From Octopus vulgaris (lineage: Eukaryota): 64,000 nt of DNA. Where the stretch lies: the NCBI GenBank assembly GCA_951406725.2, contig OX597819.1, positions 42,346,001-42,410,000 on the forward strand, in the 5' to 3' direction. The notes below the pieces were generated by a model that saw nothing but the letters and a program-made list of their open reading frames with translations, had not been told where the DNA came from and made no database searches. The translations under genes and the position numbers were made by a program. Positions 9,861 to 45,189 of this stretch are shown here, piece after piece (positions within the stretch are counted from its first letter, which is position 1; each line of letters starts with the position of its first letter).

Positions 9861-10060
9861 ATCCAAACATGAAAACACCAAGAGAAAACATAACGCGAGG
9901 ACGTGGAACAAATATAGTATTATTGGACGCTCAGGAAGGAAGGGGAAAAGGAGGGTCTTACGTTTCGAGCGGAGCTCTTCGTCAGAAACATAGGAAAAGG
10001 AAAGATCCAGAGAAGGGAAGACGGAGGGAAAAAATCGCCAACGGTACACACGCGGTCACA
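9857..10060 (-). mobile_element. About 200-bp HHR-bearing PLE-type short element in (TA)n (family H1)
   Basis: Near-identical to 25282-25475 and the reverse of 18885-19092; HHR at 9955-9989: GUUU-CUGACGA-A-GAGC(UCC)GCUC-GAAA-CG-UA-AGAC. Confidence 0.8.
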
Positions 10061-10863: not shown

Positions 10864-12093
10864 CGAGGGGCGTTCAATAAGTAATGCCCCTGACCCACTT
10901 CCCATAGCAGTAGAGCAACGAAACTTGGCACAGTTATTAGTCTTTTTCTACATAGGAACCACCCAGAGTTACGCATTTCTGACATCGTTTGATGCAGCTC
11001 TGAAGACCGTTTTTGTAGAAGACCCCAGCTTGGTCCTCCAACCACGACGTGACTTCAGAAATCAAGGCTGCATCATCTGGGAAATGTTTTCCTTTCAAAA
11101 ATGTCATGGCTGAGAAGAGGTGAAAATCAGAGGGTGCAAGGTCAGGAGAGTAGGGGGGATGGGGGATGAGTTCATAGCCGCACGCCTGTGCTTCTGATCT
11201 GGCGACACGCGAGTTGTGAACTTGATTTTGACAGCTTCTCTTAATTTCCTCAAAAGTGAAGCATAATAGGCTCCTGTAATTGTGGCACCCGTTGCCAGGA
11301 AATCTGTCATCAGTACTCCGTCCTTGTCCCAGAAGACTGTGAGCATGACCTTGCCAGCAGAGGGCTGCACCCTTGCCTTCTTTGGAGGAGGTGAGTCACG
11401 GTGTGTCCACTGCATTGACTGGGCTTTGGTCTCTGGATCATAGTGATGGACCCAGGTTTCATCCTGTGTAATCAGTCTTTTGAAAAATGTTGACTCATCT
11501 TCTTGGCACATCTCCAAATTCATCCTCGAGCAATCGACACGTTCTTGCTTCTGGAAAGATGTGAGCAACCAGGGAATCCATCTGGCAGACACCTTTTGCA
11601 TATGCAATGGTCATGAATGATAGTTTCCACAGACCCGGTACTAATCTTGACCTCATGGGCTATTTGGCGAATAGTTATGCGTCGATCTTCTAAAATGGCA
11701 GCCTCAACATGACGGACAGATGCCTCATCAATGGCAGAAGGGGCCGACCAGATCTGGGAGCTGTTTCCACAGAGTTCCGACCATGTTTGAATTCACGATG
11801 CCAGCGTTTTACAAGGTCATATGATGGGGCATCATCACCATAAGTTACTTTCATTTCAGTCTCCCGTGGTGTGCGTTCTTTCAATTACAAAAGCCGGATC
11901 ACTGCTCGACACTCAACAGGCTCCATTTCACACTTGACTCAGTTCAAACACCTGTAAATCAGAAATCACAATTGGTTCAGCGCTGTAATTTGCCACTTAA
12001 TCTATAAAGATATAAATAATTGTACATGCAAAATTTCAGCTAGATCAATTAACTGCAAGTGGGTCAGGAGCATTACTTATTGAACGCCCCTCG
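10864..12093 (-). mobile_element. Near full-length mariner transposon (1.23 kb), frameshifted transposase
   Basis: About 34-bp TIRs cgaggggcgttcaataagtaatgc.cctgaccca at both ends, TA on both flanks; minus ORFs read WHREFKHGR..ETAPRSGRP, ARWIPWLLT, LITQDETWVHHYDPE, KVMLTVFWD. Confidence 0.95.
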
Positions 12094-14324: not shown

Positions 14325-14523
14325 AGGCGGGCAAATATTTAGCGGCATTTTGTCTGTCTTTACTTTCTGGGTTTAAGTTCCGCCGAGGTCAGCTTTACCT
14401 TTCATCCTTTCGGGGTCGATAAAATAAGTACCAGTAGAACACGGGGCGGGAGGTTGGAGGGTCAATGTAATCGACTTCCCTTCGCCCGAAATTACGGGCC
14501 TTGTGCCTAAATTTGAAAGCAAT
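14325..14523 (+). mobile_element. tRNA-derived SINE family C
   Basis: Central motif ttcatcctttcggggtcgataaaataagtaccag and 3' ggccttgtgcc.aaatttgaaa shared with copies at 42556, 56012, 56962, 61322 and 61655. Confidence 0.8.
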
Positions 14524-14530
14524 TAAGCAA

Positions 14531-14672
14531 TTACATTATTTACATTCGACGAATATTTGTCCTCATCTTGTTTGTTGTTAACACAAAGTTTTGGCTGATA
14601 TACCCTCCAGCCTTCTTCAGGTGTCTTGGGGAAATTTCGAACCTGGGTTCTCATTCCTATGGTATTCTTCGA

Positions 14673-14703
<31 letters not shown>

Positions 14704-14849
14704 ATTATTATTATTATTATTATTATCATCAATATAATTATTATTGTTCAGGTCACAATATTATTATTATTGTTCAGGTCACTGCTTGGAATCGAACTCG
14801 GAATCTTGGGGTTAGTAGCCCGCGCTCTTAACCACTACGCCATATGCCC
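14531..14849 (-). mobile_element. Composite SINE: tRNA-like head, (AAT)/(AAC)n, then a 3' module with a degenerate hammerhead
   Basis: Minus strand: gggcatatggcgtagtggttaagagcgc (A box)...gagttcgattcc (B box); downstream ACAC-CUGAAGA-A-GGCUG..CAGCC-aAAA-CUUU-GUGU at 14581-14624. Confidence 0.65.
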
Positions 14850-14889
14850 GTGGGCATATGGCGTGTGTTAATTAAGCAATTAACTAATT

Positions 14890-15845: not shown

Positions 15846-16110
15846 TGAAAGCGCATTGCTCAGTGGCTAGAGCGTCGGGCTTACGATCGTGACGTCGTGA
15901 GTTCGATTCTCGGACCGGGCTGCGTGTTGTGTTCTTAAGCAAGACACTTTATTTCACATTGCTCCAGTTCATTCAGCTGCAGAAATGACTTGCGACGTCA
16001 ACGGTGCCAAGTTGTATCAGCATTTGCCTTTCCCTTGGATAACACTTGTTGCGTGGCGAGGGGAGGCCGATATGCATGGGCAACTGCTGGTCTTCCATAA
16101 ACAACCTTGC
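15846..16110 (+). mobile_element. tRNA-derived SINE family B, 3'-truncated
   Basis: A box ctcagtggctagagc, B box gagttcgattc, CORE-like tgttgtgttctt.agcaagacactt; paralog at 44463-44790. Confidence 0.85.
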
Positions 16111-16888
16111 AGGTGTGTGGATGATGGTGTGGGGCGGGAAAGTAGTCAGTGCTAGTGTGTGCGTGGTGGTGTGATGTGATGTGGTGTTGTGTGGTATGGT
16201 GGTGTATAGTGTGGTGGTGTTAGATTGTGGGGAGGCGAGATTGGAGAAAGCAAGGGTAAGGTGTGAGTTAGCCTGAGGGTGAGGTATGTGGGTGGGTGTG
16301 TAAGGGATGGATATGGAAGGTGGGGTTGGATTGTGTAGGGGTGGGGTTACGAGGGGGTGACGATGAAGGGAGAGGGGGAAGGGAGAAGGTGGATAGGAGT
16401 GAAGAGAAGAGAGAAGGAGAGTAGTAGTGAAGAGAAGAAGTGGGAGTCGGAGCAAGAGAGGAGAGGTGAGTGGTAGGAAGTGGGTGTGAGAGGGAGAGAG
16501 GAGAGGGGAGGAGGGTTAGATGAAAAGGGGAGGAGAGATGAGCCCATGTGGCGCAAAGGAGCGAAGAGAGAAGTTTAATCTCTGTTAGCGGCGAAAACGG
16601 GAGTCCGGATGGCCCGTGTGTAAAGACAATCCGAACACGGACAGAGTGACCGGTAGAGCGGAAATGGCGCAAGACCGGGGTGTCATTGCCGAGTCGGCTG
16701 TCTCGGAGATGTTCCGTGAACTGGTCAGCCAAGTCCCAGAGAGAGAAGGAGATAAGTAAATGACATTGTTAGAAGTGCAGGTGAAGGAGTCGGTGATATG
16801 ATAGGGTCGATGATGGGTGCCGGTGAGGAGGGTGGTGTTGGAGAGGTAAGGGCAAGTGCGGCAGCGTGGACGAGAGCAGGGTAACGAG
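16111..16888 (-). pseudogene. 5'-truncated Penelope-like (Neptune-like) element, GIY-YIG plus 3' UTR
   Basis: Reads PCSRPRCRTCPY...FTCTSNNVIYL and L.DQFTEHLRD.....TPV.RHF..TGHS, followed by a pyrimidine-rich tail. Confidence 0.75.
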
Positions 16889-18145
16889 CCACACAAGAGC
16901 GAGAATGCCACTATCGGTGCATCGGTACACTGTTTCCCCCTTTTGAAGTTTCATCTTGTAAAGATCGGGCGACATGTTATACCTGTGCATCCTCACAGTC
17001 CAATAGGCATTAGTTCTCCTCGCCTGCAGCTGCCGGAACAGGTCTGAACTGGAAAACCAGTTGTCCATGTAAATATTGCAACCTTTGTCAAACAAGTTTT
17101 CATTCAGTGACAACACGATATCAGTTGACGGTAGAGTAGATGCTGGAAAATCCAATCTGTCCTGACCTGTGTAGATTTTGTAATTCTACGTGTACCCACA
17201 GGCACTGCATACTTTATAAATCTTGACTCCAAAGCAGGCACGTTCGGTCGGGTTGTATTGCTTGAATCGGAGCCTTCCCTTGAATTTCTACAAATTCTCG
17301 TCCGCACAAATGTCCCATGTGGGAACATTCACCGTTCTGAAATTTTCAAACACTTTGTCAACGATAGGACGTATTTTGTGCGGCCTGTCATCCTGATTCT
17401 CGCCTGAGTTGAAATGTAAATTTCGAAGAAGCGCCAAAAATCGATCACGTGGCATCATTTCCGGAAGGAAAAGTATCGATGGCATAAGAGTCGGTTTGTT
17501 CACGATGCCCATCAGTATCAGCAGGACAAGCAAAACTTTGATTTTGGCCCCTTTGTTTGGAAACCAATCACCACCATGCCCGGGTCTGTCATTCTGGGGA
17601 TGGTTTTCAGCATAGTCATTCGTAGAAGATTTCCAATGGCGAACTGCCATGTTCAAGGTTTGCCTTTATGCCAGGCGTACCAGTAAACCCATGCCGTCGG
17701 ATTAAGTTGTCTCTCGCTTGCCATGCGGTATTCTGTTGTTCAGAGCCATTCCTTGCTGCCCGCCTGTACCTTTGATTCATCGGAATATCCTCATCGCTAT
17801 CGGAATCACCTTGTTCTGATCTAGGAAAATACTCACTCTTCGAGTCATCGTCCGAACCGGAAGAAACAACTGGTGAGGTGGCGGCGCTTGCTGTAGCTTG
17901 GCGCAACGACCGTAAATTCGACGAAACAGGACACGGCGACAAAGTTGACACAGCCAGAGTAACAGGACCAGCCTATCGGGTTGTAAATATTTACATGAAA
18001 CATCTAATCGGCCGATCAGTTGGCAGGTGGACCGGTACTAACTCGGGCGACTGGTTCTAAACCAGGAGGTCTATAATTACGTCGACCGATTTAAAGCATG
18101 TGCATTGCGTGCGTCAATTTACGTGAACCGTTTTAAAAGTATTAA
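16889..18145 (-). pseudogene. piggyBac (PGBD-like) transposase remnant, 5' half
   Basis: Reads MPRDRFLALLRNLHF, KIRPIVD..., ICADE, LFDKGCNIYMDNWFSS.DLF..L, after an acidic Ser-rich N-terminus; TTAA at about 18142; several frameshifts. Confidence 0.88.
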
Positions 18146-18890: not shown

Positions 18891-19092
18891 GTATGACCTC
18901 TTGTGTATCTTTGGCGATTTTCTTTCTCCGTCTTCCCTTCTTTGGACTTTTTCTATATTTCTGATGAAGAGCTCCGCTCGAAACGTGAATTCCTCTTTCT
19001 TTTCTTTCCTTTCCTGAGTGTCCAATAACACAATACTTGTTCCACGTCCTCGCGTTGTTGTTTTTTCTTGCTTGTTCTTGATTGGATTGACT
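18885..19092 (+). mobile_element. Family H1 HHR element, cleavage triplet mutated to GUG
   Basis: attt-CTGATGA-A-GAGC(TCC)GCTC-GAAA-CG-TG-aat at 18957-18991; (TA)n flanks; partial second copy at 19357-19421. Confidence 0.78.
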
Positions 19093-19784: not shown

Positions 19785-20192
19785 TTGTTTAACGCCACCT
19801 AAACACGGCTGTTCCCTAGGAACCGACGATACTGTCTTCAGCTGCTTATGCAGTGCGCTCTGCACTCGATACACATATTAGAAGCGGGGGGAAGAACTCC
19901 CTACTATTTTAGCCCTGGGACCATCAAACGAGTAGTTTCGACCTTCTTATGGTCATCTTCGGTGATGGATACTCGTCCGCTAGACAAAGTAATAGTTCAC
20001 TCCAGCACGCAACATATAAAAAAATATAAGTGACACACAGTCACTGATCTTGCAAGAAGCAAACAAATCGAGACAATCTAGATAAGAGAGCGCACTGCAT
20101 AACCAGCTGGAGGAGGTGGCCTCCTGGGATTAAATACAGCAGTATCGTCGGTTCCTAGAGAAAACAGCCGGGCTTAGGTGGCATTAAGCACT
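19785..20192. mobile_element. Foldback HHR element related to the retrozyme-like family at 29 kb and 54 kb
   Basis: Inverted arms 19785-19861 and 20087-20192; minus-strand HHR at 19921-19968: CCAUCA-CCGAAGA-U-GACC(AUAAGAA)GGUC-GAAA-CUACUCG-UU-UGAUGG. Confidence 0.72.
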
Positions 20193-43782: not shown

Positions 43783-45189
43783 GAAAACGAAAAAATAGTT
43801 TCACCATTCTATAGCAAAACCGTTGTAATATACTTTGACAATTTTTTGATATCTTGGCATTTGAAGAAGTTGGAGATACGATAGTTTGACTACAAGAAAC
43901 AGCTACTACGAGCAAAAATAAATATTCAATAAAGAACGATTGAAAAAAAAATTGCATTTGGACAAATTTGGACATACGACACTTTAACATAATAGCAATG
44001 ATATATATAGATATATAGTTATATATACATACACAACGCATTCGTCGTATATGAATGAATATAATTATTTCAGCGTAATATGTACACACGGACGCAATGT
44101 ACCAGGAACAGCAAAAGTGTACAGAGACACAGGATAACAGAAATACATATGAATGCATTGTGAAAGAAAACACCAAGAGAGAAACGTGGTTAACGAGGAC
44201 GAGTGAAAAAAAAGACTGTTCGCTGAATATATCTTTCAAGTGTTATACTTAAGTGATACGAAGGGGAGGCCAGGATGACAGATTGTTGATAAAAACAATA
44301 CATTTTTTGAGAGAAAAAAAGATAACGAATAAAGGAATAATAGAATGTTTGTTTTCTTTTTAAATACAATGAAAGCCCTCAAGGTTCGGAAACAATGAAT
44401 TATCGTTGAAGTAACCTAAAAAATATAATTTCTTTTTATCATTATTATTTTGTCTTTGTTCCGTGAAGCCGCATGGCCTGGTAGTTAGAGCGTCGGGCTC
44501 ACAAATCTTGAGGTGGTGAGTTCGATTCCCGGAACGGGCTGTGTGATGTGTTATTGAGCAAGACATTTTATTTCACGTTGCTCCAGTTCAGTCAGCTGTA
44601 GAAATGGATTGTGACGTCAGTGGTGCCAGGCTGCATCGGCCCATTTGCTTTTCCTTTGGATAACATCGGTGACGTGGAGAGGGGAGGCTGGTATGCATGG
44701 GCGACAGCTGGTCTTTCATAAATAACCTTGGAGGGGAACTTTCTAGGTGCAATTCCATGGTCAGTTATAACCGAAGTAGATCTTTACTCTTACGCTTTTT
44801 GCTCCAATCAAGGCTTGAGGCCACTGCAGAGTAAGGGACTAGAAAAAAGAGTATAAAAGAGCCTTTTATATTTATACACACCATTGTGTGTATAAATTCC
44901 ATATTTTATTGCGGCCGATCCGCTGATTAGCGCAACCAATTCACAATACGTTAAAATAGTGAGGGAGCTCTATCCCAAGTCTGTCCTCTTCTTGTGTCTG
45001 ATGCTGCAGAGGAGATAACTACTCAGAACTGTTCTTTTTTTTTTCAGAAAACGAAAAAATAGTTTCACCATTCTATAGCAAAACTGTTGTGCTACACTTT
45101 GACAATTTTTTGATATCTTGGCATTTGAAGAAGTTGGAGATACGATAGTTTGACTACAAGAAACAGCTACTACGAGCAAAAACAAATAT
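43783..45189 (+). repeat. About 145-bp direct repeats (43783-43927 and 45046-45189)
   Basis: gaaaacgaaaaaatagtttcaccattctatagc...gctactacgagcaaaaa present twice, nearly identical. Confidence 0.85.
44463..44790 (+). mobile_element. SINE family B, full length
   Basis: Paralog of 15846-16110 with A and B boxes and the 3' tail. Confidence 0.85.

Follow-up and report, generated by a model that had tools for sequence, protein, structure and literature searches.

A tRNA-headed octopus repeat as a probable solo pseudo-LTR of a Penelope-like retrotransposon

A window of 64,000 nucleotides of the Octopus vulgaris genome (the whole stretch of DNA analysed here) carries on its minus strand a short repeat in which a tRNA-like head, an (AAT)n linker and a hammerhead-containing 3′ module, hereafter the tail, follow one another. 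To which class of element does such a unit belong? A preliminary description took it for an RNA polymerase III (Pol III) SINE joined to a hammerhead-containing 3′ module and moved by a Penelope-like element (PLE). We read the stretch as a solo pseudo-LTR belonging to a Penelope-like retrotransposon of Poseidon type (probability about 0.95), because an autonomous PLE bears the same head, (AAT)n linker and tail at both of its ends. The PLE as mobiliser thus stands and the separate SINE does not: head and tail together make up one PLE terminal repeat, and it is in the tail that the PLE's own open reading frame (ORF) starts.

The copy in the window

The features of the copy are collected in Table 1. 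The head with its A and B boxes (14849-14778, minus strand), the (AAT)/(AAC) linker between head and module on the same strand and the hammerhead module (14625-14580, minus strand) were all recovered as first described. Both boxes were called by what we take to be the box consensus. A 26-bp tandem duplication, with units starting at 14782 and 14756, lies at the head/linker border. The 3′ module stops at the proximal end site and is without the 32-nt extension considered below. The 13-mer of the target-site duplication occurs in only two copies in the 64-kb window.

Table 1. Features of the repeat copy, in window positions
Feature	Position	Strand	Basis or remark
Target-site duplication, 5′ side, 13 bp	14870-14882	.	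same as 14521-14533
Inverted head arm	14852-14869	+	13 nt perfect (14852-14864), then 5 nt matching further inverted head with two single-base losses
Leader TGCCC-AC, native to autonomous PLE	14850-14856	-	identical 7 nt before head, after PLE stop codon
tRNA-derived head, candidate internal Pol III promoter	14778-14849	-	tRNA alignment and A/B boxes
A box	14832-14842	-	sequence
B box	14788-14799	-	sequence
(AAT)n/(AAC)n linker, length variable	14676-14777	-	sequence
3′ module, PLE open reading frame start	14531-14675	-	in-frame ATG 14654-14652
Minimal type I hammerhead	14580-14625	-	sequence layout as in the available text of PMC4209133
Hammerhead stem I	14625-14621/14584-14580	-	
Hammerhead core	14620-14614; extra A 14613	-	
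Hammerhead stem II	14612-14608/14597-14593; stem III palindromic	-	
GTAAATAAT repeat, stop point of short-ended copies	14531-14543	-	last 3 nt within target duplication
Target-site duplication, 3′ side, 13 bp	14521-14533	.	brackets whole unit

The first 13 nt of the head had also been described as duplicated in inverted orientation. The inverted repeat is real, perfect over 13 bp and spans 14837-14864, but it is not wholly new: 7 nt of its left arm and loop (TGCCC-AC) are native to the PLE. This leader forms a hairpin by pairing with the opening 5 nt of the head. Since leader and first head bases already make up a hairpin in the PLE, the 13-nt inversion is best seen as the native hairpin extended, and the arm in the window copy is likely to be its fold-back extension. 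The leader probably marks the 5′ end of the RNA.

When compared with 35 distinct tRNA sequences, which represent 7 isotypes only, the window head was closest to a genomic tRNA-Arg(TCT) (z 8.9 against shuffles). ARAGORN and Rfam detected neither a tRNA nor a hammerhead in the window unit. In the family majority both the A and the B box are intact. A pattern search with an exact 41-mer of the head gave 375 matches in the genome and 0 with the reversed control, so the head family does not arise by chance. The window also holds another tRNA-derived repeat, whose head resembles the PLE head about as closely as that tRNA does, so that the PLE head may have been acquired via a SINE. Two copies of that repeat lie at 44468-44760 and 15850-16000, with a head ~70% like that of the PLE, and it is a possible intermediate source.

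The hammerhead of the window copy had been described as mutated. G12>A was seen at 14592 together with a second core change, G16.2>U at 14587; by the minimal criteria it fails at G12 and G16.2 and is predicted to be dead. In the family majority, by contrast, the minimal type I core is complete: stem II is preceded by an extra base, stem III is palindromic, and each element of the minimal PLE hammerhead is found (CUGANGA, extra base, G10.1-C11.1, GAAA, palindromic stem III and UH). The consensus core is therefore intact, and 12/40 copies are intact throughout. Divergence amounts to 6.4% in the core versus 5.7% elsewhere; no selection on the genomic hammerhead copies was detected in this comparison, and inserted copies appear to decay neutrally because core and non-core sites have diverged alike. 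N7, a position free to vary, accounts for the commonest variant within the core (28 T, 12 A and 1 C). The folding energy of the 3′ module is unremarkable (z 0.56), and cleavage by the PLE hammerhead would require a dimer or a protein. Short stem I, an extra base between 9 and 10.1, G10.1-C11.1 and palindromic 15.2-16.2 are all reported for the minimal hammerheads of animal PLEs, which are mostly single motifs from truncated PLEs (PMC4209133). As far as the available text of that study goes, the predicted octopus ribozyme does not differ in itself from them.

Linkage of head and tail and the autonomous parent

The preliminary description had called for a count of how often head and tail are linked. 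In the head-selected sample (the first 30 of 375 head loci), the tail lies downstream of the head and on the same strand in 26/30 loci, 25 by script and L054 by eye; L031 was likewise scored by eye. One of the remaining loci holds ~14 nt of tail and three are without it. Conversely, the head is present in 25/30 tail-selected loci. The tail search returned 1960 first-look candidates, with an identity of 92-100% among the 41 matches listed; the 40,655 first-look candidates of the protein search with the tail frame are not a copy number. That head and tail are independent repeats which met in an AAT tract has next to no probability; the preliminary description had named this outcome as its own refutation, and the linkage counts rule it out. 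Other retroelements do insert in the linker (L005, L007, L008, L017, L053 and others), and 5/30 tail-selected loci lack a head; against this reading are the 26/30 linkage, the single target duplication around the whole window unit and the fixed order of the parts in the autonomous element.

By exact 41-mers, the head is found 375 times and the ORF end, which lies ~60-100 nt upstream of a head, 31 times. Solo copies thus outnumber ORF-linked ends ~12:1, a rough ratio since CpG content differs between the 41-mers and inverted arms were counted too.

The (AAT)n linker was seen to host other insertions at L005, L007, L008, L017, L020, L035, L043 and L053. One inserted family recurs in L005, L008, L017 and L053, and the insertion in L007 presumably represents the 3′ end of a restriction-like-endonuclease LINE, which it resembles. 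An annotated Octopus sinensis protein (P0001) includes a piece of the tail frame with 89% identity, probably because a copy was exonised or the annotation is in error.

A search for an autonomous PLE sharing the 3′ module, likewise called for, was successful. A pattern for what we take to be the Penelope/Poseidon reverse transcriptase (RT) motif picked out one PLE family, with 118 matches in the genome and 0 in the control. The order of its autonomous unit is head, (AAT)n, hammerhead/ORF start, RT, GIY-YIG, 29 nt and head again. In 30 of the 31 ORF-end loci, a set independent of the RT-motif set, the head was sought behind the ORF: it stands at a fixed junction, typically 29 nt past the RT-GIY-YIG stop, in 26/30, and the tail is also behind the ORF in 23/30. 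The tail with its extension continues directly into the PLE ORF in 22/30 loci, and the pattern for this tail-ORF junction has 49 exact matches. A frame that includes an ATG is open across the tail; translated, it matches the N-terminal end of P0004, a relative of 847 aa (20/45 identical, pairwise E 2e-5). At L190, the head-linker-tail unit is present at both ends of the PLE. Contigs bridging ORF end and head were found in four sequencing runs labelled as four other organisms. A tRNA-related head with A and B boxes, as expected of a tRNA-derived SINE, is thus present, but such a head should be absent from the autonomous partner, and here the autonomous element has it at a fixed junction (26/30).

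By motifs and domain layout, the parent is classed as a Penelope/Poseidon-type PLE. Its longest frame (L210, 569 aa) scored E 2.7e-6 with Pfam RVT_1, just under the cut-off, and gave no score with Pfam GIY-YIG; RT and GIY-YIG motifs are visible in the alignment with relatives. CSC stands between GIY and YIG in the family majority, so that the two cysteines typical of the class are present. The Neptune cysteine linker between RT and nuclease is absent in L210 and present in L093, and the nuclease is not N-terminal as in Naiad. Pseudo-LTRs, partial tandems and inverted 5′-truncated copies, which characterise PLEs, were all found. Among 138 frames scored, no intact full PLE ORF was found; when the tail peptide served as a protein query, the frames scored (150 of 40,655 candidates) did not exceed 236 aa.

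Neptune-like PLEs with a 781-aa frame, which a Pfam GIY-YIG search brought up, were considered as the partner and rejected: 0/58 loci carry the 3′ module at their own end (a solo copy in one of the 58 GIY-YIG loci is unrelated), and the hammerhead of these PLEs belongs to another variant. The other Pfam GIY-YIG match is a probable exon of a host nuclease. The Neptune-like family (L092, L093 and L077, on G000 C16, C17 and C9) is young: intact 781-aa frames are numerous, a 378-aa frame lies upstream, and the hammerhead shows a U3-A8 core variant and a CAUG stem III.

Internally deleted mini-elements of the order tail, short ORF piece, head and tail were seen at L279, L280 and L285. The join is identical in L279 and L280, which argues that the deleted form was itself amplified.

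Ends of the copies and start of the RNA

The 3′ ends of the copies fall into two clusters, a short one at tail positions 140-159, in the short repeat, and a long one at 180-185. An inverted copy on the 5′ side is present at many loci. Inverted pairs were analysed at 31 distinct loci from L002-L060, with the tandem locus L021 excluded. An extension of ~32 nt is present on exactly one end of 29/31 pairs, on neither end in 2 and on both in 0. Direct repeats of at least 8 bp flank 18/31 pairs; among 930 mismatched pairings the rate is 2.3%. Just 1/19 pairs has arms that disagree at both subfamily sites, and both arms therefore appear to be drawn from one source pool. An optional 'tail' of 30-40 bp is known from PLEs (PMC8557442), and in the Poseidon element of the anole it reflects a pair of sites within the ORF at which the RT can start internally (PMC11167929). 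As these sources describe it in their available text, the extension on one end of the octopus pairs is this 'tail'.

The excluded locus L021 (G000:C30:17290171-17293314) holds one head, ~7 tandem tail units and an inverted piece, all within one 10-bp direct repeat. Its array is retrozyme-like.

At the 5′ side, upstream PLE sequence precedes 3/57 distinct heads by script and a fourth (L039) by eye, and a 6-nt leader (GCCCAC) stands before 29/57. When the 26 heads with this leader and without PLE context were inspected, position -8 held the fold-back letter and not the PLE letter in 21. Five ORF-linked copies have a whole 5′ head; three of these start at most 4 nt from the head and two run on into the upstream ORF end. 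The deletion join common to L279 and L280 connects ORF +234 to exactly the leader. These boundaries fit a single RNA 5′ end just upstream of the A and B boxes, though a stop of the RT at the hairpin would look similar.

The sense strand was also searched for runs of four or more T. The 2,576-nt majority of the PLE body contains 0 of them, and their density is 0.36 per kb in its copies versus 3.73 per kb in those of a Neptune-like PLE, the one comparator used, whose T content is similar. The deficit has a p of 0.0075 against base shuffles, 0.105 against dinucleotide shuffles and 0.11 against synonymous-codon shuffles (1,707-nt frame). A coding strand nearly free of Pol III terminators is suggestive of transcription by Pol III. 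Contigs from four runs presumed to be RNA cover head and tail; start, strand and level are not readable from contigs. The tRNA-like head is likely to work as a Pol III promoter. It is conceivable, though less likely than not, that the PLE is an autonomous element with a captured tRNA gene as promoter which Pol III transcribes from end to end, its 2.6-kb coding strand having been cleared of TTTT terminators; it would use the uncapped RNA as mRNA, shed tens of thousands of SINE-like copies of its 5′ end by internal RT initiation and so combine SINE and partner in one element.

Formation of the solo copies and comparison with known systems

The mechanism as a whole, built on the sequences, has in our estimation a somewhat better than even chance of being right. 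The RT of the PLE itself would copy no more than the initial ~330 nt of an RNA that probably begins, under Pol III control, at the tRNA-derived head. The A and B boxes would drive transcription from ~6 nt upstream of the head. The PLE protein would nick AT-rich DNA, and reverse transcription would begin inside the RNA, ~120-138 or 163 nt past the ATG; for such internal start sites there is in vitro evidence from the anole Poseidon (PMC11167929, available text). Short copies would outnumber ORF-bearing ones because a start at the first repeat-ORF junction yields head, linker and tail only. The cDNA end from the 5′ hairpin would then fold back and be extended, by 13-18 nt in the window copy, or alternatively the cDNA would join another cDNA whose synthesis was primed on the opposite strand. 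The outcome would be inverted pairs in which a single end carries the extension, and staggered nicks would give the duplication of 8-16 bp.

Solo and ORF-linked tails are of similar age, with 95.3% and 93.7-94.4% identity to the majority, respectively, and alleles are common to both (Fisher p 0.35); no solo-specific or younger subfamily was found in this small tail sample. Solos would be dead ends, and junction-bearing copies (including L279, L280 and L285) the sources, because the anole RT needs RNA beyond the start sites, a rule that comes from one anole element. The array of ~7 tails within one duplication at L021 counts against the mechanism, since it needs repeated template jumps or another template. 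Only 5 copies bear on the 5′ end of long elements.

The same solos could form a self-propagating SINE born from the pseudo-LTR, with Pol III transcribing them and the PLE enzyme copying them in trans; this comes near the preliminary description, except that the PLE is the parent. They retain the A and B boxes, are without a T4 run and exceed ORF-linked ends ~12:1; the tandem tail array of L021 would also agree with this. N7=A is somewhat commoner among head-selected loci (6/24 versus 8/52 ORF-linked), but the difference has a p of 0.35, the allele occurs in ORF-linked tails as well and both variants are equally old. Moreover, the solos do not contain RNA past the distal start site, which the anole Poseidon RT required in vitro (PMC11167929, available text). 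We consider such a SINE unlikely. An origin as ordinary 5′-truncated PLE insertions appears quite unlikely. On this reading the cDNA of long Pol II transcripts, begun at the 3′ repeat, would stall at the hairpin just upstream of the head, and the head would be a captured relic and not the working promoter. PLEs are usually heavily 5′-truncated, and the promoter in the pseudo-LTR of Drosophila Penelope is LINE-like (PMC2377424, available text). ORF coverage drops steadily toward the 5′ end, and 2/5 long copies reach upstream of the head. However, a 5-bp hairpin is a weak cause for a ~12-fold step, and 3/5 long copies and the recurrent deletion join begin at the same point. The A and B boxes are also intact in the majority, and T4 runs are tenfold rarer than in the Neptune-like PLE. 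We retain internal RT initiation on an RNA begun at the head as the preferred reading.

Poseidon_Ac of the green anole, as described in the available text of PMC11167929, resembles the octopus PLE in its single RT and C-terminal GIY-YIG ORF, in a hammerhead that overlaps the ORF start, in AT-rich targets and in two end sites slightly more than 100 nt into the ORF, which delimit a 30-40 nt tail that may or may not be present. That text mentions neither a tRNA-like head nor a Pol III promoter; in octopus, by contrast, a tRNA-derived head stands at the beginning of the repeat, and most repeats are solo. Drosophila Penelope (PMC2377424) shares a promoter within the pseudo-LTR, putative in octopus, partial tandems, inverted termini, target duplications and a 34-37 bp terminal repeat at the ORF start. 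Its promoter, however, is TATA-less, LINE-like and accompanied by an intron, and the term 'polymerase III' is absent from the available text. Schistosome Sm-alpha, a SINE-like element apparently transcribed by Pol III, is short like the octopus unit with its candidate promoter and likewise joins a promoter to a type I hammerhead (PMC6765202, PMC8490949). In those sources, as far as available, its hammerhead is canonical and no autonomous parent is named, whereas for the octopus unit the autonomous element whose terminal repeat it forms has been identified. Chlamys MRC1 (PMC8557442) and the non-LTR retrozymes (bioRxiv 10.64898/2026.07.22.740005) are short PLE-derived pseudo-LTR units like the octopus solos, and such non-autonomous derivatives are sometimes tandem, as at L021, L279 and L280; the available text of either source reports no tRNA head.

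Hammerheads, tails, inversions and non-autonomous derivatives of PLEs have thus been published; the novelty lies in an autonomous PLE that contains a tRNA-derived head. Full-text searches of the literature brought up no description of such a head; the family may be catalogued in Repbase, Dfam, SINEBase or a deposited library. In their available text, the octopus repeat studies PMC13282606 and PMC8967140 count SINEs and Penelope separately, without a tRNA-headed PLE. A PLE with a tRNA-type head and internal RT initiation would offer a route to SINE-like repeats without a separate SINE, and part of the very large octopus 'SINE' fraction may be PLE pseudo-LTRs. The abundant short copies serve as a natural record of PLE integration, with two start sites, one per end, arms of the same subfamily and fold-back at the 5′ hairpin. 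If Pol III makes the whole element, its RNA would be a rare Pol III-made mRNA, and it would become a testable question how a message that is uncapped and carries a hammerhead within the ORF can be translated.

Some further elements were seen in the window. A second, unrelated minimal-hammerhead repeat with a short GAGC/GCUC stem II is present at 9991 and 25419 (minus strand) and at ~18940-18990 (plus strand), in all three cases adjoining (TA)n tracts. A hammerhead-like motif with a CCGAAGA core variant lies at 19968 (minus strand). The frames at 10937-11610 and 16268-17665 are presumably broken mariner transposase, piggyBac-like and GIY-YIG-linker fragments.
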